64,000 nucleotides of DNA from Promethearchaeota archaeon (GTDB lineage: Archaea > Asgardarchaeota > Lokiarchaeia > Sigyniarchaeales > SOKP01). Shown here piece after piece: positions 16,461 through 26,446 of this stretch (positions are counted from its first letter, which is position 1; each line of letters begins with the position of its first letter). Made by a program: the position numbers and the translations under genes. Location: positions 1 through 64,000 of the forward strand of contig JBHLOC010000022.1 of assembly GCA_048940925.1 (NCBI GenBank), read 5' to 3'. The notes under the pieces were generated by a model. That model worked only from the letters and a program-made list of their open reading frames with translations, did not search any database and was not told the origin of the DNA.

Positions 16461-17402
16461 ATGGGAATGTTAGATGGAAAAGTTGCCATAATAACTGGCG
16501 CTGGTCGTGGTGTTGGTCGCGAAGAAGCATTAATTATGGCAAAAGAAGGATGCAATTTAGTAATTAATGATATTGGTGGGGGAGCTAGTCATCTTGATAA
16601 AGATGCTAAGATTGCAGATTCTGTTGTAGAAGAGGTCAAAGCTCTTGGAGTTAAAGCAATAGCAAATTACGACTCTGTAGCTGATTATAATAAGATGAAA
16701 GCTATGATAGATAACACTATTTCTGAATTTGGTAAATTAGATATCGTTGTAAACAATGCCGGAATTCTACGTGATAGGATGATATTTAATATGGCTGAAG
16801 AAGAATTTGATCTTGTTATTGCTGTTCATTTAAAGGGAACATTTAATTTATCTAGACATGCTGGAGCATATTTTAGAGAGAAAGGTAAAGCAGACGAATC
16901 TTTAGGAAATTTTGGCAGAATTATTAATACAGCTTCAGACTCTGGTTTATATGGAAATGTAGGTCAATCAAATTATGGAGCTGCTAAATCTGGAATAGCT
17001 ACTTTTACGGTAATTGTATCTAGAGAACTTGCTAAATACGCAACCGTTAATTGTGTTGTACCAAATGCCAGAACCCGTATGACTACTGATTTGACACCAA
17101 GAATAGCGGGATTTATGGAAAGAAAAACGAAAGATGGTTTTGATGTTTTTCATCCGATGCATTTTGCACCTTTAGTTGCTTATTTAGCTTCAGATGCTGC
17201 TAAAGATATTAATGGGGAAGTGTTTAGAGCTATTGGAGATAAAGTCTGGGTGTATCGTGGGTGGCGTGCTGTAAAGAAAATATCAAACAATTGGCAAACA
17301 TTTACCCCACAACAACTAGCTGAGAAATTTCCTGAACTAATGAAGGATTTGCCTGATAAAAGGGAAGGGGCAGCAAGTCCTCAGGAATTAGGAATGATGT
17401 AA
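16461..17402 (+). CDS. SDR dehydrogenase, MFE-2/HSD17B4-type 3-hydroxyacyl-CoA dehydrogenase-like
   Basis: TGAGRGVG, VINDIGG, ANYDSV, NNAGILRD, GLYGNVGQSNYGAAK. Confidence 0.88.
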   Translation: MGMLDGKVAIITGAGRGVGREEALIMAKEGCNLVINDIGGGASHLDKDAKIADSVVEEVKALGVKAIANYDSVADYNKMKAMIDNTISEFGKLDIVVNNAGILRDRMIFNMAEEEFDLVIAVHLKGTFNLSRHAGAYFREKGKADESLGNFGRIINTASDSGLYGNVGQSNYGAAKSGIATFTVIVSRELAKYATVNCVVPNARTRMTTDLTPRIAGFMERKTKDGFDVFHPMHFAPLVAYLASDAAKDINGEVFRAIGDKVWVYRGWRAVKKISNNWQTFTPQQLAEKFPELMKDLPDKREGAASPQELGMM

Positions 17403-17422
17403 TTTAATTAAAATATTTTCTA

Positions 17423-17432
17423 TTTTTTTTTT
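17423..17432 (+). terminator. Oligo-T terminator candidate
   Basis: T10 tract about 20 nt after the SDR stop. Confidence 0.45.
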
Positions 17433-17478
17433 ATTTTTATTGACGCTTTAATTAATTAGCATATTTAAGTATAAAATA

Positions 17479-18372
17479 GTGATTAAATTGGTTTTTATTC
17501 ATAAGGAAGGAAAATTTAATGAGAATAGTTATTTAATTGATGGATATTTATTTGGAGCACCTAGAAGTCTTGCTCTTTATGTTATTGAAAATAATGGAAC
17601 TCGGATGCTCATAGATACGTCTACTTCAGAAAGCGCAGAAAAAATCATAGAAAAGTTAAAAGAATTTAAGATTTACCCAGTTCATAAGATTTTACTAACT
17701 CATTCACACGGGGATCATACTGCTGGAGTTAACAAATTAACCGAATTAATGAAAGACATCGATATTGAAGTTTTAGCCTCAGAGAATGCAGTTGAGAACT
17801 TAAAAAAGCCTGCAGTCATGAATGATGTATTTGATTTTACAGTAGAACCAATAAATGAAGTTATACCATTAAAAGAAGGTGATTTTATTGATTTAAATGG
17901 TCTAAAGTTAGAAATTTTTAATTTTTTTGGTCATACCATGGATTCGATAGCATTATTAGACGAGAAAAACAGAAATATATTTACTGGTGATGCAATTATT
18001 GATAGAGCAGGATATAATTATGTACAACCTACTTTTATGCCCCCAAATTTCAATGAATCTGAATTAATGAAGACATTTCAAAAACTTAAGAATTTGAAAA
18101 ATAAGCTAAATTCTATTGCATTAGCTCATTTTGGGGTATGGGTTGATGAGGATTTTGAAAAAATTCTTAATGAGATGGAAACTCTTCACTTTGAAACCAA
18201 AAATTCACTAATTCACTGGTATAAAGAAAATTTATCAATTAAAGAGATAGCAAGGAAATACATTGAAAGATTCATGCCAAAGTCTAAAATTATCGAATAC
18301 GGATTACTAGATAATTTTAAAATGAATATAAACTGGTTATTAGAAGGTTTGAAAAGAAGTGGATTCATTTAA
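17479..18372 (+). CDS. Metallo-beta-lactamase-fold hydrolase
   Basis: THSHGDH, GHT, FTGDA, AHFG. Confidence 0.9.
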   Translation: MIKLVFIHKEGKFNENSYLIDGYLFGAPRSLALYVIENNGTRMLIDTSTSESAEKIIEKLKEFKIYPVHKILLTHSHGDHTAGVNKLTELMKDIDIEVLASENAVENLKKPAVMNDVFDFTVEPINEVIPLKEGDFIDLNGLKLEIFNFFGHTMDSIALLDEKNRNIFTGDAIIDRAGYNYVQPTFMPPNFNESELMKTFQKLKNLKNKLNSIALAHFGVWVDEDFEKILNEMETLHFETKNSLIHWYKENLSIKEIARKYIERFMPKSKIIEYGLLDNFKMNINWLLEGLKRSGFI

Positions 18373-18485
18373 AAATATGACATGAAAAGTATTGATGAAA
18401 AAAATAAATCATAGTCGAAATAATTAATATATTGTTAGATACAAAAATTAATTAATTAAATATTAAAAATTAGAAAGGGTTAAAA

Positions 18486-19328
18486 ATGACTAGTTTAGAT
18501 TTAGACATTATAGGTAAAGAAACAGAAGAGAGAATTCGTAAATATACTTGGAAAGATGTAATTCTATATAATTTAGGAATTGGGGCTCAGCCCGATGAGT
18601 TACCCTTTGTTTATGAAAGATATCCTGGAGGAGTTCAAGTTTTTCCTAGCTATGCTTGCATCATTGGAGGAGCTGGATTTCCTAAATTTAGTAAAAAGGG
18701 AATCGATGGTGCTCGTTTTATTCATGGAGAACAAATGATCAAGCTTTATAAACCTTTTCCCTCAGAAGGAGAGATTAAGGTTAAAGGAGTATGTGAAAAC
18801 ATGTTTGACAAGGGAAAAGCCGCAGTTATTCATACAAGAATTTCTGGAAGAACTATGGAAGGTGAACAAATTTTTGATACTAAGTATGTTCATTTCTATA
18901 TTGGAGAAGGTGGATGGGGAGGAGATCGTGGTCCAAAAGCTGAACCACTAGACCCTCCTGAAGGAAAAGATCCTGATTTTAGTATAACTTATAAAACTAA
19001 TATAAATCAAGCAGCAATATATAGACTAAGCGGTGATTTAAACCCTCTACATATAGATCCTACCTTTGCAAAAAGAAGTGGGAGATTTGACAGACCAATT
19101 CTTCATGGATTGTGTACTTATGGTCATGCAACTCGTGCTATAGTATATGGTCTTTGTGACGGTGATGTAGCTCGATTCAAGGAATTCAAAGCACGATTTA
19201 CAAGTGAAGTATACCCTGGAGAAGCCCTTACTACTGAGGGTTGGAAAGAAAACGGACGCTACTTAATTCAAGTGCGATCTGAGCGGGATACAGTAGTTCT
19301 GGGAAATGCTTATGCTATTGTAGAATAA
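18486..19328 (+). CDS. Double hot-dog (R)-specific enoyl-CoA hydratase 2 (MaoC/MFE-2 hydratase-like)
   Basis: HGEQ, YRLSGDLNPLHIDP hydratase-2 motif, PILHGLCTYG. Confidence 0.92.
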   Translation: MTSLDLDIIGKETEERIRKYTWKDVILYNLGIGAQPDELPFVYERYPGGVQVFPSYACIIGGAGFPKFSKKGIDGARFIHGEQMIKLYKPFPSEGEIKVKGVCENMFDKGKAAVIHTRISGRTMEGEQIFDTKYVHFYIGEGGWGGDRGPKAEPLDPPEGKDPDFSITYKTNINQAAIYRLSGDLNPLHIDPTFAKRSGRFDRPILHGLCTYGHATRAIVYGLCDGDVARFKEFKARFTSEVYPGEALTTEGWKENGRYLIQVRSERDTVVLGNAYAIVE

Positions 19329-19507: not shown

Positions 19508-20644
19508 TTAATTGTTTCTTGGGGGCAGCATTCTTACCATTCTCGGACCCTCAATAAGAGAAATAGCATTTTCAGGGCAATGATAAGCACACACTCCACA
19601 TCCCACACAGATATCTTCATTTCTTACTGCTATATTGTCATCATTTAATTCGATGGCTTTATTGTAGCACAAATCTACACAGATGCCACACCCAACACAC
19701 AAATCTTCATCAATACTAGATAAATAATTAGTAGCATTAACAACGGGGAAAATGAGACAGTCTTTAGCAGTTAAGCAACAACAACTACAACAATTACAAA
19801 TCGCTACTTCTTCTTTGTTAGTATCACCATGTAGGTGGTATGCTTTATGAACCAATCCCGCATCTTCACATTTTTTTAGAACTTCAAGCGCTTCTTCTTT
19901 AGATACCAAGTTAGAAAACCCATGATTAGAAGTATGTCTTGCAGATTTACCTAATGTCATACATGTTGGTATAAGTTCAATTTGTTTACATGGTTCTCCT
20001 AAAAATTCCTGGTGTTGTCGACAATAACAATGTCCTATAGCAATATCATCATATTTTTCAATGAGTTCTCGTATCCGTTGAGTTGGTAAAATCTGTTCTG
20101 TTGGAACTTGGAGTTCTTTATTAACAATTACATTAATTTCTTCACCGGTTACAAGATTTTCTAATATAGGGACTGTTCGATCTACTGGTCCCATCCTACT
20201 TAATGCTGCTCTCATTCCATCATAGTTAGATTGTACGTATTCACTCGATTCTTCATTAAGTTTATAGAATAATTTAGCTAATTTGTAATTCTCCTCTGTT
20301 TTATCAAGTTTTTGCATGAAAATATATTCAAATTGTCGTCCCATCATTAATAAACGATATACCATTACCCCATATCGGTTGGGCTGATTGAAAATAACCC
20401 CAGTTTTTGCTAGAGCATCTGTTTTTCTCAAGATTTCATCTTCAGATAAACCACTACTTTCTTTTAATTGTTCCATTGTTTGGGAGATATTTTTCTCAAA
20501 AGCCATCACAAGATCGAGATTTTCATCCTTAATGGTATACTTTAATATTTCATGCAGTGTTTCCGACCAACCATGATGAAAACCCCCCGCTTTAGCTAAA
20601 ATATTAGCCGCTTTTCTATAATCTGCTTCACTCATTTTTAACAT
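19508..20644 (-). CDS. Multi-Fe-S protein (HTH-like, Cys-rich, 2x[4Fe-4S]), paralog of 2242..3375
   Basis: QTMEQLKESSGLSE identical to the paralog, CYCR, ICNCCSCCC, two CxxCxxCxxxC motifs. Confidence 0.85.
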   Translation of the reverse strand: MLKMSEADYRKAANILAKAGGFHHGWSETLHEILKYTIKDENLDLVMAFEKNISQTMEQLKESSGLSEDEILRKTDALAKTGVIFNQPNRYGVMVYRLLMMGRQFEYIFMQKLDKTEENYKLAKLFYKLNEESSEYVQSNYDGMRAALSRMGPVDRTVPILENLVTGEEINVIVNKELQVPTEQILPTQRIRELIEKYDDIAIGHCYCRQHQEFLGEPCKQIELIPTCMTLGKSARHTSNHGFSNLVSKEEALEVLKKCEDAGLVHKAYHLHGDTNKEEVAICNCCSCCCLTAKDCLIFPVVNATNYLSSIDEDLCVGCGICVDLCYNKAIELNDDNIAVRNEDICVGCGVCAYHCPENAISLIEGPRMVRMLPPRNN

Positions 20645-20862: not shown

Positions 20863-22194
20863 ATGAAAGAAACAAAAGAAGTATATTTAGTAGACCATGT
20901 AAGGACACCATTTTCTCAAGCAAATCCTCTAGATCCCGACGATGACGTTTTTAGTAAAAAGTGGGGTACCGAACTTGCAGCTCATGTTTTGAGGGATATG
21001 TTTGACACCCGAATACCAAGCAAAGGCAGTACACTCAAACGTGAGAACGTTAGTGAGGTTCTGGTTGGCGGTACTTTATTACAACATGAACATGGAACAT
21101 TTGGGGGAAGAATGCCCGGATTTATGACAAAATTTCCCTTCCATGTACCTGCAACGGTATTCGATAAACAAGACTGTTCTGGTATGACAACTTTACATGT
21201 TGGATTTGGAAATATTGCATTGGGTTATTCTAATGTAGTAGTAACTATAGGTTTTGATCAATTTACTCGAGTGCCATTACACAATTATGATGGAAAAGTA
21301 AAAGTATTTGGAATTCCCCCAGATAAACTGATGCTTGATCCAGAGAATAAATGGTATAATGATGATTTATATGATTGGAAAACTAGTCGTCTATTATTTC
21401 AGGCAGCACAAAAACTTGCGGAGGAAGAAGCAGATCTATTTACTAAAGATGAATTGGATAAATTTAGTGTACGAAGTCACAATCTAGCAGAAAAAGCTCA
21501 GGAAAATGGATATTTCAAAGAAGAAATTATGGGTATTAAAGGACATAAAGTAGGAGATCCTGATAATGAAATTGAGATCGAAAAAGATCAATCTATTAAA
21601 AAAGCAGCTACACTAGAAAATATTACTAATGCACCCTCTATAAGCATTCCTGGATGGGCAGGTGGCTATAAAAATCCTATACTCACAAAAGATGAATATG
21701 TCGCGAAATTTGGGACAGATAAGGGTATTATAACAACGGGAAATAGCTCTCCTTTGTGTGATGGAGCGTCACTTTGTTTGCTAACATCTAAAGAAGCTCT
21801 TAAAGAATACAACCTAAAACCCATGTCTAAAGTAGTCTCGATTGGTTTTGCAGGAGTAGATCCAACTGTACGTGGACGAGGGATAGTACCAGCAGCTCAA
21901 ATGGCTTTAAAGCATGCAAATTTAAAAGCGGATGAAATAGATTATTGGGAAATTAATGAATCCTTTAGTGTTGTTGCACTATATGCTGCTAATAAATTAG
22001 GAATTGATTGGGAAAATAAGATGAATATTCATGGGGGTGCAATATCAATTGGTAATCCAGCATCTGCTACCAGCTTGAGGATTACGACAACATTAGCCAG
22101 AATACTAAAAGAGAAAAAGGCAAAATATGGACTTGCAGCTATGTCGTGTGGTGGTGGTCAGGGAACAGCTGTGATAATTGAAAATTTAGATTAA
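20863..22194 (+). CDS. Thiolase-fold protein with substituted catalytic residues (probable pseudo-thiolase)
   Basis: Full-length thiolase alignment, but DKQDCSG, NESF, GNP, MSCGGGQG at the catalytic motifs. Confidence 0.85.
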   Translation: MKETKEVYLVDHVRTPFSQANPLDPDDDVFSKKWGTELAAHVLRDMFDTRIPSKGSTLKRENVSEVLVGGTLLQHEHGTFGGRMPGFMTKFPFHVPATVFDKQDCSGMTTLHVGFGNIALGYSNVVVTIGFDQFTRVPLHNYDGKVKVFGIPPDKLMLDPENKWYNDDLYDWKTSRLLFQAAQKLAEEEADLFTKDELDKFSVRSHNLAEKAQENGYFKEEIMGIKGHKVGDPDNEIEIEKDQSIKKAATLENITNAPSISIPGWAGGYKNPILTKDEYVAKFGTDKGIITTGNSSPLCDGASLCLLTSKEALKEYNLKPMSKVVSIGFAGVDPTVRGRGIVPAAQMALKHANLKADEIDYWEINESFSVVALYAANKLGIDWENKMNIHGGAISIGNPASATSLRITTTLARILKEKKAKYGLAAMSCGGGQGTAVIIENLD

Positions 22195-22240
22195 TAAAAT
22201 AAAATATGAGGTTAAAATAATAAAAAGAGGTATAAAAATT

Positions 22241-23545
22241 ATGAAAATAAGAGAAGTATACATTACAGATTATATTAGAACACCATTTTCAAGATCTCGA
22301 CCAAGAGAACCACCAAGAGATGTTCTTGGAAATTTACGTCCCGATGTAATGACTGCTTTAACATTAACGGAAATGTTTGATAATCGATTAAAAGATAAAG
22401 TTAAACCCGAAGATGTAGATGAGTTTTATATTGGGGCTACTCATTTTAATAATGAGTATGTAACTTTTGGAGGAAGATATCCCATATTTTTAGCGAAATT
22501 TCCAGCAAAAGTATCATCTGTTGCATTAGATAGAGCTTGTGGCTCAGGAATGACAGCTGCTTCAGTAGGATATGATAATATTGCTTTGGGATATTCTGAT
22601 GTTGTAATAGCTTCGGGGAAGAATAATGCTACTATGTCACGATCAAGACCTCCGACGGTAAGAGAACCAAACCCTGCTATGTTGAAAGGACATGAATTTT
22701 TTGTTGATGATGTTGTTGACTTCCGTTGCGCATATTCAATGTTACAAACCGCACAAAAACTCCATGAAGTGAATGCAAACATATTTTCAAAAGAAGATAA
22801 TGATAGATTTGCAGTTCGCAGTCATCAATTAGCCGCGAAAGCTCAAGAAGAAGGATTTTTCAAGGGGGAAATTGTCCCTATTATGGGACACATAGAAGGA
22901 GATGAGGATACTCCATTATTAATTGAACATGATACATCAGTAAGAAAAAATGCTACATATGAGGGCACAAAAGATTTAAGGGGATTAACCACCCCTGGAT
23001 GGGCTGGTGGATACTATAATCCACTTTTAACTAAAGAAGAATACATTGAAATATTTGGAACAGACCAAGGCTTAGTAACTGCGGGAAATTCATGTCCAAC
23101 AAATGCAGGAGCAGCAACCTTATTGTTGATGTCAGAAGAAGCCATGAAGAAACATGATCTAGATCCATTAGTACGCATTGTTTCTATTGGATTTGGAGCG
23201 GTTGATCCTACTGTTATGGGAAGAGGTCCAGTTCCAGCATCCTGGATGGCATTAAAGCATGCAGGATTAACAACTGATGATATTGACCTTTTTGAAATCA
23301 ATGAGGCATTTGCTATTGTAGCTCTAAACTGGATCCATGAGATGGGATTAGATAGTCGAATTGATGATATAAACATTAAAGGTGGTGGCATTTCCATAGG
23401 TCATCCGATCGCAGCAACAGGTCCCAGAATAGTTGGTACATTAGCAAGAATCTTAAAAGAGAAGAATGCTCAACTTGGCCTTGCTACGATGTGCTGTGGT
23501 GGAGGTCAAGGAACTGCTATGATACTTGAGAATACAGATGTTTAA
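22241..23545 (+). CDS. Acetyl-CoA C-acyltransferase (thiolase), catalytic residues intact
   Basis: DRACGSG, NEAF, GHP, CCGGGQG. Confidence 0.93.
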   Translation: MKIREVYITDYIRTPFSRSRPREPPRDVLGNLRPDVMTALTLTEMFDNRLKDKVKPEDVDEFYIGATHFNNEYVTFGGRYPIFLAKFPAKVSSVALDRACGSGMTAASVGYDNIALGYSDVVIASGKNNATMSRSRPPTVREPNPAMLKGHEFFVDDVVDFRCAYSMLQTAQKLHEVNANIFSKEDNDRFAVRSHQLAAKAQEEGFFKGEIVPIMGHIEGDEDTPLLIEHDTSVRKNATYEGTKDLRGLTTPGWAGGYYNPLLTKEEYIEIFGTDQGLVTAGNSCPTNAGAATLLLMSEEAMKKHDLDPLVRIVSIGFGAVDPTVMGRGPVPASWMALKHAGLTTDDIDLFEINEAFAIVALNWIHEMGLDSRIDDINIKGGGISIGHPIAATGPRIVGTLARILKEKNAQLGLATMCCGGGQGTAMILENTDV

Positions 23546-23600: not shown

Positions 23601-24185
23601 TTATAATCTATTTTTTGGTCTTGAGGGTATATAATAGACTAATGGATTAGTACCTACTTCTGGTTTAAGTTGAAATAACCCATTTTTAGTTAATTTTTTT
23701 GATACAATACTATCAGGGTTATTTAAGTCTCCAAAAAATAACGCCTGACCTTCACAACAAATTACACAGAAAGGTTCAAGTCCTTGATCAATCCTATGAG
23801 CACAAAAATTGCACTTTCGCGCAAGGTTACTCTCATCTTCAAATACAATGATATTATATGGACATGCTGCTAAACATAATTGACACCCAGTACATAGTTC
23901 TTGGTCTAATATAACAATCCCATCATTTCTTTTTTGCAGAGCTTCCTCAGGACAAGATTCAACGCAAGGTGGGTTCTCACAATGATTGCATAATTTAGGA
24001 AGGAAATCCAATGTCAAATTTGGAAAGCTTCCCCCGGGAGTATCCTTCACATCACTACCTTGTGTTTCAACCTTTATCCAATAATCAGTTGTATTATTTT
24101 CAATTTTACATGCTATACTACATGCTTCACATCCGATACATCTTTCTTGGTCAATAACCATTCCTAATTGTTTTACTTTACTCAT
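23601..24185 (-). CDS. 4Fe-4S dicluster subunit (DmsB/NrfC/PsrB-like)
   Basis: CIGCEACSIACK, CNHCENPPCVESCP, CTGCQLCLAACP, KCNFC, GTNPLVYY. Confidence 0.92.
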   Translation of the reverse strand: MSKVKQLGMVIDQERCIGCEACSIACKIENNTTDYWIKVETQGSDVKDTPGGSFPNLTLDFLPKLCNHCENPPCVESCPEEALQKRNDGIVILDQELCTGCQLCLAACPYNIIVFEDESNLARKCNFCAHRIDQGLEPFCVICCEGQALFFGDLNNPDSIVSKKLTKNGLFQLKPEVGTNPLVYYIPSRPKNRL

Positions 24186-26446
24186 TTAATTTCACCCTCA
24201 CTTTTTATTATTTCAACAGCAACATCATTCATATGCATATTTGGTTCATAGACTTTATCCTGTACAGGATTAATAATGTCATGTGTTAAATGATTCAGAC
24301 TTCCCTCTCTAAATTGCTCTATCCACCAACCTTCCGTAATATCAACCACTCCAGGTTTAACACCTTCAGTTACTCTAGCTTTCAGTGTTGTTCGAGCTCT
24401 ATCATTATAGACGGTAACCAAATCACCAGTTATTATATTTCGCTCAGTAGCATTAATTGGATGAATATCCACTATTGGCTCAGGATTTAAATCTAATAAA
24501 GATTGCACATTAGCAAACATAGAATGTGTACGAAAACGACTATGACCATTAATAAGTGTCAAGGGGTATTTCCTTATACCTGGAGTTATCGGAGCTTCAA
24601 TTGGAGGAAGATAAACGGGAAGAGCTTCTCCATCATCATATAGCTGTTCTGTGTATAGTTCGATTTTTCTTGAAGGTGTATTAAAACTTAGAGGAAACTT
24701 TGCCCCTTCTGGAAGCTTCGGTAACCTCATAGCTTGGGTCTTCAGCGTGTCTCGAGTGATCCCTTCAAAGGTGCGTGTTGCCATAATAAGATCTATTAGT
24801 CCTTCTTCTCCACCTTTGAAATATTCTCCAAATCCAAGTCGTTCAGCAAGTTCAGCTACAATATTAACATCAGATTTAGATTCATATAAAGGTTCAATTA
24901 TTTTTTGTTGGAATTGTACATAAGGATATGGTTGAGCTAGAAAATCTGAAAATTCTAAAAAACTACAAACAGGAAGAATTAAATCGGCATATCGAGCAGA
25001 AGGAGTCATGAATAATTCAGTTTGTACAATAAATTCTAATTTAGGATAGAATTCATTAATTATTTTATTAGAATTAGCACACTGATTTAAGAAGTTAATG
25101 AAAGCAAACCAGAGAGCCTTTATTGGGTAAGGCTTCCCAGAGATCACAGCATCATATAGGTTTAGGATTCCAAGTCTATGGAAGCTAGGTTTATCAGGGA
25201 TGGCCTTAAGAAAAGGGTTCCAATTTAAAATTGCTGGTATATATCCTGAACTTACTGATGTAGTTATATTACCAGTAATAGCAGCTACAGAAATCACTCC
25301 TCTTAAAGAGATATCTCCATGATATGTCCTTGTAAAACCCATATGAGTTAAAAACACGACTTTTTTGGAGTTGCCAATTCTTTTAGCTAATTTAATTATA
25401 AGATTTTTATCAACTCCTGTAATTTCGGCAGTTCTTTCGGGAGTGTATTCAGATGTTAATTCAATCAATAATTGAAGTACTGGTTTACATTCAATTCTAT
25501 TTATAGTGTAAGTTCCAGTAAGATTTGCATCTTTTACATTTGAACGAGTTAGTGTTTTATAAGAATTAGAAGGTTCATGCCATATAATATAAGCATCTGA
25601 TTTTTTAGCATCAACGTCTTTTCCTCGTAACATTTTTCCATTATCAGTTCTTACCAAATAAGGTCCATTTGTGTGTTCTAAAATGAATTTTTTATCATGT
25701 AATTCATTTTGAAATATAAAATTCATAACACCTAGCGCTAAAGCACTATCTGTTCCAGGATTTAGACCAATATAATCATCAGCTTTTGATGCTGTAACTG
25801 TGAAACGAGGATCTACTACAATAACTTGAGTTCCTTGTTCTTTAGCATCCATTATTTTTCTCATATTTTGTAAAGGCATGGATTCAGCGGGGTTTGTAGC
25901 CCATATCATTAACAATTCAGGGTATTTCCTCTGCCAAAATTCCCCATGCAAATGCATATAAGGAAATTGGTGTCCTAAAATTATTCTACTTCCACAGGGT
26001 AAGCCTGCATCTCCATACCCCCATGCGCTCACGCGTGTACTCTGAGTTAGACTAGCTAATCTCAAGTATGCTCCAAATTTGGTGGTACCAGCACCAGGCC
26101 CCCCTAATACCCATCCAATCGATTTCCATCCATATTTCTCAGATAGTTCTTTAAATTTAGAGACAATAATCTCATAAGCTTCATCCCATGATATTCGCTT
26201 AAATTTTCCCTCTCCACGTTCACCAACCCGTATCATAGGATATTTAATCCGATCTGGGTGATAAGTAATATCTAAACTAAGGAGACCACGTAAGCAAATT
26301 CTTTTTTCCTTTTCATCAGGGAACTCTGCAGGTTCTAACTTAACAATGCGATCTCCCTTTACATGAGCTAATATTCCACAGCAATCTATTCCACAATGAG
26401 CAGGACAAGCTGTCCTTATAATTTTAATATTTTCATTTTTTACCAT
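24182..26446 (-). CDS. Molybdopterin oxidoreductase catalytic subunit (DMSO reductase superfamily), no Tat signal
   Basis: CPAHCGIDCC...ICLRG, HPDRIKYPM, NPAES, PGTDSALA, RFRTHS. Confidence 0.9.
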   Translation of the reverse strand: MVKNENIKIIRTACPAHCGIDCCGILAHVKGDRIVKLEPAEFPDEKEKRICLRGLLSLDITYHPDRIKYPMIRVGERGEGKFKRISWDEAYEIIVSKFKELSEKYGWKSIGWVLGGPGAGTTKFGAYLRLASLTQSTRVSAWGYGDAGLPCGSRIILGHQFPYMHLHGEFWQRKYPELLMIWATNPAESMPLQNMRKIMDAKEQGTQVIVVDPRFTVTASKADDYIGLNPGTDSALALGVMNFIFQNELHDKKFILEHTNGPYLVRTDNGKMLRGKDVDAKKSDAYIIWHEPSNSYKTLTRSNVKDANLTGTYTINRIECKPVLQLLIELTSEYTPERTAEITGVDKNLIIKLAKRIGNSKKVVFLTHMGFTRTYHGDISLRGVISVAAITGNITTSVSSGYIPAILNWNPFLKAIPDKPSFHRLGILNLYDAVISGKPYPIKALWFAFINFLNQCANSNKIINEFYPKLEFIVQTELFMTPSARYADLILPVCSFLEFSDFLAQPYPYVQFQQKIIEPLYESKSDVNIVAELAERLGFGEYFKGGEEGLIDLIMATRTFEGITRDTLKTQAMRLPKLPEGAKFPLSFNTPSRKIELYTEQLYDDGEALPVYLPPIEAPITPGIRKYPLTLINGHSRFRTHSMFANVQSLLDLNPEPIVDIHPINATERNIITGDLVTVYNDRARTTLKARVTEGVKPGVVDITEGWWIEQFREGSLNHLTHDIINPVQDKVYEPNMHMNDVAVEIIKSEGEIK

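Follow-up and report, generated by a model that had tools for sequence, protein, structure and literature searches.

We report that a 64,000-nucleotide stretch of DNA from Promethearchaeota archaeon (GenBank assembly GCA_048940925.1, contig JBHLOC010000022.1, positions 1 to 64,000 of the forward strand; hereafter the window) encodes, at positions 20,863 to 23,545, a thiolase-fold protein stripped of its catalytic residues, directly followed by an intact, active paralog. We refer to the upstream paralog (P0001) as psi and to the downstream active copy (P0002) as the partner. Psi has been kept under purifying selection since the tandem duplication, has always been passed on along with its active sister, and is selected for something other than thiolysis. 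With a probability of about 60%, we favor the reading that psi is the non-catalytic subunit of a heterodimeric thiolase whose active subunit is the partner.

Both genes lie on the forward strand. Psi (20863-22194, 443 aa) and the partner (22241-23545, 434 aa) are full-length open reading frames (ORFs) separated by a 46-nt spacer (22195-22240), in which a GAGG motif precedes the partner ATG by ~10 nt; a promoter/terminator scan, which is uninformative for an archaeon, turned up no terminator-like site in this spacer. Over their full length, the two proteins share 48% identity (E 2e-143), and each combines a Thiolase_N and a Thiolase_C domain (Pfam PF00108 and PF02803), scored in psi at 90.8 and 114.4 bits, respectively. 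Both pass the TIGR01930 model for acetyl-coenzyme A (CoA) C-acyltransferase, psi with 266.2 against a cut-off of 240.55, and both stay under the cut-off of the best equivalog model, NF005033. Psi has no match to the ketoacyl-synthase families PF00109 and PF02801, to the first of which the partner scores 18.7 bits against a cut-off of 20.8.

Thiolysis requires a Cys/His/Cys triad, which is intact in the partner (Cys100, His388 and Cys418, together with Asn354). Residue mapping onto the solved Clostridium acetobutylicum thiolases 4n44 and 4n45 places Asp104 of psi (codon GAC, 21172-21174) at the position of the nucleophilic Cys in the CxS motif, Asn398 (AAT, 22054-22056) at the His position of the GHP motif, and Ser428 (TCG, 22144-22146) at the acid/base Cys position of the CxG motif. 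The NEAF motif reads NESF in psi (21955-21966), with Asn365 retained and the Ala replaced by Ser367 (TCC at 21961). A Cys directly follows two of the changed positions: Cys105 (TGT, 21175-21177) comes after the nucleophile position, and Cys429 comes after Ser428, the latter being common to the partner clade, which reads CC. A sequence-only reading of the window had described a full-length upstream copy, changes at all three of its catalytic positions and the NEAF-to-NESF change, all of which the codons bear out. It had also singled out an insertion beginning PGWAGGY as shared by, and distinctive of, the two copies. The insertion, ~21 residues long, is indeed common to both, but sister thiolase clades carry it too; a shorter form occurs in other Asgard thiolases and general thiolases do not have it, so that it is a lineage trait of a wider Asgard thiolase clade and no mark of the pair.

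A search of 5.8 billion proteins for psi orthologs delimited a psi group of ~37 clusters with 55-89% identity to psi, sharply separated from active thiolases, which come next at 51% or less. The members originate from metagenome-assembled genomes of Promethearchaeota, Lokiarchaeota or Thorarchaeota, or from sediment metagenomes. In all ~35 psi orthologs across this identity range the Cys/His/Cys triad is absent. The nucleophile position is Asp in 29 sequences, Trp in three, Ser in two and Ala in one, and Cys in none; the GHP His position is Asn in 32, Leu in two and Glu in one; and the acid/base Cys position is Ser in 30, Pro in two, Ala in two and Thr in one. Among 113 other thiolase cluster representatives, drawn from 1.84 billion proteins, 100 carry the full Cys/Asn/His/Cys set and a single one besides psi (P0201) lacks Cys, His and Cys together. 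The pattern of triad loss in psi is not due to chance and, lacking these residues, psi is incapable of the Cys-acyl/His/Cys thiolase mechanism.

Whether the Asp/Asn/Ser substitutions themselves are conserved, a check that the sequence-only reading had proposed, has a mixed answer: the triad is lost in every ortholog, but the replacements differ in deep psi branches, which carry W/N/S, A/E/T or S/L/S at the three catalytic positions. Since the replacements vary between deep branches, the conserved property is the absence of catalytic residues and not a new residue set. This bears on the possibility that psi is a new enzyme built on the thiolase fold, a hydrolase, a lyase/aldolase or a decarboxylase-like protein that would act before or after the partner through Asp104 and Asn398 (and Ser428). 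Within the crown group, Asp104 and Asn398 are invariant and Ser428 nearly so, the oxyanion-hole Asn365 of the NEAF motif is kept in most of the psi clade (deep branches have Asp), and the thiolase-fold aldolases Ltp2 and Sal offer a precedent for repurposed active-site residues (PMC12329534). However, no residue set is common to the whole clade, the neighborhood of the site evolves at the average rate of psi, conserved basic residues and Met178 have been lost, and psi is sister to a true thiolase and not to the Ltp2/Sal clade, with no DUF35 (domain of unknown function 35) gene recorded near the pairs. We consider such new chemistry quite improbable.

The one other representative without the triad, P0201 (378 aa; locus L036, 6001-7137, on a bacterial contig of GCA_947085265.1), is an independent thiolase-family protein with Gly/Asp/Asn for Cys/His/Cys. 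It sits in a phenylacetate (paaABCD-like) cluster, where a close paralog is absent from the adjacent positions; a DUF35-fusion gene and a sterol carrier protein x (SCP-x)-type thiolase are located two genes further downstream. A few further cluster representatives (P0125 and P0069) are otherwise intact thiolases whose acid/base Cys motif reads G-C where C-x is expected, either because the acid/base Cys has moved over by one residue or through a local error of the alignment; a Cys one residue past the acid/base position is also conserved in the psi and partner clades.

A maximum-likelihood tree of 42 rows (LG+C20+F+G4), with which a quick 71-row tree agrees, recovers the psi clade (support 100/99), the partner clade (100/100) and the union of the two (100/99), nested among ordinary Asgard thiolases, with a stem of length 0.20 leading to psi and one of 0.38 leading to the partner. 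Within the psi and partner subtrees, the branching orders mirror each other. The tree points to psi and partner being sister clades that stem from one tandem duplication, after which the upstream copy would have lost catalysis and the pair would have been co-inherited ever since.

Every psi ortholog is an intact, full-length ORF, and 126 of 429 alignment columns are invariant across 13 of them. Coding sequences of psi and of the partner, taken from the window and from seven further loci, were compared by the Nei-Gojobori method. In unsaturated comparisons (synonymous divergence, dS, of 0.2-0.46 for psi and 0.2-0.6 over both genes), the ratio of nonsynonymous to synonymous divergence (dN/dS) is 0.135-0.16 for psi versus 0.09-0.12 for the partner. 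Over these seven loci, psi is 86, 86, 77, 67, 63, 57 and 55% identical to the window copy, and the partner 89, 88, 82, 76, 78, 64 and 63%; psi divergence is ~1.2-1.7 times that of the partner in the same genome pairs. The sequence-only reading had named orthologs that retain Cys/His/Cys, with a dN/dS near 1, as the mark of simple decay. Instead, the orthologs are devoid of the triad and dN/dS of psi is 0.14-0.16, and we reject psi as a decaying duplicate on the strength of this low ratio and of the intact orthologs. The same reading had raised a shifted active site, in which Cys105 would take over as the nucleophile. Cys105 is present in 3 of the ~36 psi proteins that cover the position (P0001, P0003 and P0026), the others having Gly or Ser. 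We reject this candidate too, as the residue is not conserved and psi also lacks the His and the second Cys. A pseudogene in progress, or a normal thiolase working through Cys105, would draw on the lost catalytic residues and on the Cys that follows the nucleophile position in this genome, but is contradicted by the intact orthologs, the dN/dS values, the invariant columns and the rarity of Cys105; we give it next to no credence.

Psi and its partner occur together without exception. Of the 135 species genomes surveyed from the family to which the window belongs, 15 have psi, in 16 copies, and the 16 copies of the partner clade are found in these same 15; neither psi alone nor a partner-clade gene alone was found in any of the 135. 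All 16 pairs are adjacent, on the same strand and with psi first. The 15 genomes all belong to the window's own genus (15/54), and no pair was found in 81 genomes from 12 other genera of the family. A phylum-wide sample of 301 genomes shows the same adjacent, psi-first pairing. We attach no statistic to these counts because related genomes are not independent. At loci L001, L002/L003, L004, L005, L007-L009 and L037, too, psi immediately precedes a partner-clade gene and has the same orientation, with a gap of 13-60 nt in loci other than the window, and the pair is still adjacent at L001 and L004, whose psi orthologs are 57% and 55% identical to that of the window. Searching from the other side, with partner-clade proteins (L041-L045), we found a psi gene of the Asp/Asn/Ser type upstream of each. 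Conservation of the gene pair, which had been put forward as a point to check, thus holds in both directions in all loci and genomes examined.

One genome, G276 (GCA_964435435.1), has two pairs, at C120 5496-8171 and at C17 27578-30240 (L038 and L039). They belong to different subclades, one having Asp and the other Trp at the nucleophile position, which suggests that the two pair types differ in specificity. The phylum-wide sample also yielded a partial psi, 90% identical to that of the window, at the end of a 2.6-kb contig (L010, G295:C408 1611-2576); it is assigned to a genome from another family of the phylum with ~9% contamination, so that either faulty binning or recent transfer may account for it.

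Psi has also shed the constraint that surrounds a thiolase active site. We compared alignment entropy in 13 matched psi-partner pairs, using rough motif ranges picked beforehand from the motif positions. In the partner, entropy is 0.30 in the neighborhood of the active-site and CoA motifs versus 0.58 elsewhere (p 1.5e-5), whereas in psi it is 0.75 versus 0.74 (p 1.0); for the difference between psi and partner in motif-neighborhood constraint, p is 0.009. The extra constraint around these motifs has been lost in psi and retained in the partner. Psi further lacks several residues that active relatives keep with few or no exceptions, including Arg21, Arg27, Arg34, Asp36, Met178, Arg246 and Ala367, and where the partner has an N-terminal arginine run, SRSRPR..R..R, crown-group psi carries uncharged or acidic residues. 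Going by the alignment to 4n44 and 4n45, the Met178 and Arg246 positions are presumably those of Met157 and Arg220 of the Zoogloea ramigera thiolase, in its active site and CoA site, and Ser296 of psi is presumably the counterpart of its pantetheine-contacting Ser247.

The alignment of these 13 pairs also defines a loop specific to psi, residues ~138-176 (21274-21390, forward strand), with the core KWYNDD.YDW. It is longer than its equivalent in the partner and conserved down to the deepest psi branches, and over residues 147-164 entropy is 0.79 in psi versus 1.08 in the partner. Loop residues 149-153, 156-157, 164, 166, 169-170 and 176 fall within the predicted dimer interface.

An AlphaFold2 model of psi (predicted local distance difference test, pLDDT, 93.2; predicted template modeling score, pTM, 0.92) finds its best fold matches in 1wdk_C and 3goa, dimeric FadA-type thiolases from fatty-acid oxidation complexes (template modeling score 0.92 on the target), and the canonical tight-dimer strand, residues 93-103, is present and aligned with that of active thiolases. 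Prediction of the psi-partner complex, with an alignment for each protein, gave an interaction prediction score from aligned errors (ipSAE) of 0.97 versus 0.00 for the best control; of 80 solved complexes 58 attain the mark set for this score, as do 2 of 110 mismatched pairs. The runs had at least 95% of their contacts in common, pLDDT of the partner was at least 93, and the predicted interface is the canonical tight dimer through the N-beta3 strands. As solved thiolase homodimers exist, this pass may come from likeness to them. The prediction is also blind to the distinction between hetero- and homodimer, and we therefore do not count it as support. It shows that canonical tight-dimer geometry would be compatible with a psi-partner heterodimer, and the predicted interface list served only to define residue sets for conservation tests.

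Those tests, together with several other results, weigh against a heterodimer. Conservation at the predicted interface does not significantly exceed that of the remainder of psi (p 0.31), and differences between psi and partner are not significantly enriched there (odds ratio 1.6, p 0.13). Retention of Ser296, in the pantetheine-loop motif, makes some CoA binding by psi possible, and the invariance of Asp104 and Asn398 in the crown group would also fit a new function for these residues. A weak search among proteins of 777-2215 aa found no fused psi-partner protein. Most generally, none of the sequence-based tests told a heterodimer apart from two homodimers. Sites where psi and partner both differ from other thiolases show no interface enrichment either (p 0.85), and the asymmetric positions 34/36, 73-78, 98-100, 166 and 330/331 are, given the null enrichment, anecdotal.

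The lack of any special conservation or co-adaptation signal at the interface speaks for psi as a stand-alone homodimeric binder of acyl-CoA or another ligand, a sensor or a scaffold, merely co-expressed with the thiolase and perhaps sequestering an intermediate or providing a docking site for further enzymes of the pathway. Purifying selection combined with loss of catalysis fits any non-catalytic role, the fold of psi is intact and Ser296 is kept. A monomeric thiolase-like protein without catalytic cysteines is known from Mycobacterium smegmatis (PMC3406046). On the other hand, four to five conserved arginines as well as Met178 and Arg246 are gone and the former active site is fully relaxed, so that a CoA-ester pocket is unlikely to have been retained, and one subclade has a Trp at the nucleophile position. 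Nor would a mere accessory binder require that the partner clade never occur without psi, and the other neighbors vary between loci while the pair does not. We regard a stand-alone role as unlikely. The evidence as a whole makes both the acyl-CoA-binder and the new-chemistry alternatives less likely.

Thiolases are obligate dimers. We favor the psi-partner heterodimer for this reason, because the partner clade never occurs without psi and the two have been inherited as a unit since their duplication, and because psi has lost its catalytic and probably its CoA-binding features while keeping a fold-wide constraint and gaining a loop of its own. The sequence-only reading had proposed that psi persists as a non-catalytic subunit alongside its active paralog; the triad loss, the dN/dS values and the exceptionless pairing support this proposal, and from these we infer the heteromer itself. 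Psi and partner would come together at the tight-dimer interface typical of thiolases, and each dimer would then have a single active site. With Met178, Arg246 and the N-terminal arginine cluster gone, psi would no longer bind CoA esters productively. It could instead stabilize the partner and/or shape its substrate pocket with the conserved elongated loop, by analogy with the action of a chain-length factor on its ketosynthase or of the inactive subunit in alpha2beta2 steroid acyl-CoA dehydrogenases; alternatively, psi may dock other enzymes.

Thiolase-fold proteins without thiolase residues, and active/dead heterodimers among ketosynthases, are already known. Type II polyketide and aryl-polyene synthases contain ketosynthase-chain-length factor (KS-CLF) heterodimers, such as ApeO-ApeC, which are active/dead pairs (PMC8358021). 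These heterodimers resemble the Asgard pair in that the genes for the active enzyme and for a nucleophile-less paralog lie side by side in the same orientation, the two having arisen by duplication and been kept as a unit. In KS-CLF, the dead copy is part of a pseudo-twofold heterodimer and shapes the substrate cavity. KS-CLF proteins are built from ketoacyl-synt domains (PF00109/PF02801) and use acyl carrier protein substrates, whereas the Asgard pair has Thiolase_N and Thiolase_C domains and CoA substrates. Moreover, psi has lost all three catalytic residues, heterodimer formation and pocket shaping are putative in its case, and its setting is catabolic and not biosynthetic. A second parallel is found in the alpha2beta2 acyl-CoA dehydrogenases ChsE4-ChsE5 and ChsE1-ChsE2 of steroid side-chain degradation, in which only one subunit type is catalytic (PMC11153573). 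There too, a normally homo-oligomeric beta-oxidation enzyme has become a heteromer of adjacent paralogs, one of which holds the catalytic residue and the substrate site, and the arrangement is linked to bulky substrates. These dehydrogenases differ from the Asgard pair in fold and reaction and are actinobacterial, and their assembly was shown experimentally, whereas that of the Asgard pair is putative.

Within the thiolase fold, psi shares with FadA-type thiolases (TIGR01930; 1wdk_C and 3goa) the fold, the domain order, the motif framework and the predicted tight-dimer interface, and differs from them in lacking the nucleophilic Cys, the His, the acid/base Cys, Met178 and Arg246; known FadA-type members are homodimers or homotetramers of active subunits. 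TLP1 of M. smegmatis, which has no thiolase activity, is, like psi, a thiolase fold without catalytic cysteines, and is described as monomeric (PMC3406046); the residues of the tight-dimer strand are present in psi. Ltp2 and Sal also have a thiolase fold in which catalytic residues are missing or repurposed, but they form a distant clade of homodimers flanked by DUF35 domains, with Tyr/Tyr or Tyr/Cys (PMC12329534). Psi, by contrast, is the sister of an adjacent bona fide thiolase and is of the TIGR01930 type, and no DUF35 gene (PF01796/PF12172) is among the recorded neighbors of any pair. Full-text literature searches, with incomplete coverage of subscription journals, returned no conserved active/dead paralog pair or heteromer among true thiolases, and in papers on Asgard metabolism, within the same incomplete full-text coverage, we found no description of the psi-partner pair. 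So far as the searched literature goes, the subunits of a true thiolase are all alike and active, and form homodimers or homotetramers.

The pair is embedded in a cluster of candidate catabolic genes. Convergent to it, on the reverse strand, are two genes identified by Pfam matches, a 4Fe-4S subunit (23601-24185, 194 aa) and a type II dimethyl sulfoxide reductase-like molybdenum/tungsten (Mo/W) catalytic subunit (24182-26446, 754 aa). This cytoplasmic two-subunit Mo/W enzyme is convergent to the pair in at least eight loci, including the window, L037 (12770-15615), L039 (2542-5387) and L041-L045. Its best matches are the perchlorate reductase PcrA (4ydd), thiosulfate reductase and the alpha subunit of ethylbenzene dehydrogenase, all of its PDB and NCBIfam matches being below cut-off and the NCBIfam scores far below. 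At L002, a distant Mo enzyme (34% identical) lies upstream of a Trp-type pair.

Upstream of psi, the forward strand encodes a short-chain dehydrogenase/reductase (SDR; PF00106, 16461-17402), a metallo-beta-lactamase (MBL)-fold protein (PF00753, 17479-18372) and a double hot-dog hydratase of the multifunctional enzyme 2 (MFE-2) type (PF22622 and PF01575, 18486-19328). This block (16461-19328) is syntenic in L037, L040 and L043, with one or two hydratase copies in the L037 and L040 relatives; SDR, MBL-fold protein and hydratase 2 amount to the arrangement of the (R)-specific multifunctional enzyme 2, split over separate genes. Enoyl-CoA hydratases are also recurrent beside the pair. Between the block and psi, a conserved poly-Fe-S protein of 378 aa (19508-20644, reverse strand) is divergently transcribed from the pair. 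Its only Pfam match is a C-terminal 2x[4Fe-4S] region, leaving the N-terminal two thirds without assignment, and its relatives are 69-82% identical (L037 7763-8890, L039 9316-10452, L040 8107-9246 and L043 1270-2397). At the deepest loci, L001 and L004, these neighbors are absent and the pair alone persists. Because the neighbors change while the pair persists, the pair is the conserved unit.

The gene content of the cluster hints at a pathway resembling beta-oxidation, whose acyl-CoA substrate would be unusual and possibly branched or bulky. More speculatively, and as a long shot, the pair may be a one-active-site heterodimer in which the loop and de-charged surface of psi reshape the pocket for a bulky or branched substrate, and which, together with the nearby Mo/W enzyme and the MFE-2-type hydratase/dehydrogenase, would make up a new anaerobic archaeal route degrading isoprenoid- or sterol-like side chains.

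Automatic annotation labels both genes "acetyl-CoA C-acyltransferase", so that the thiolase complement of these genomes is overstated. If psi is indeed the non-catalytic subunit of a heterodimer, thiolases would join the enzymes with pseudoenzyme subunits, and the pair would be a CoA-dependent, catabolic counterpart of KS-CLF. Together with the (R)-specific beta-oxidation enzymes and the Mo/W enzyme, the pair draws attention to a putative accessory module of catabolism in Asgard archaea, organisms whose lipid and hydrocarbon metabolism is of interest for carbon cycling in sediments and for ideas on the origin of eukaryotes.

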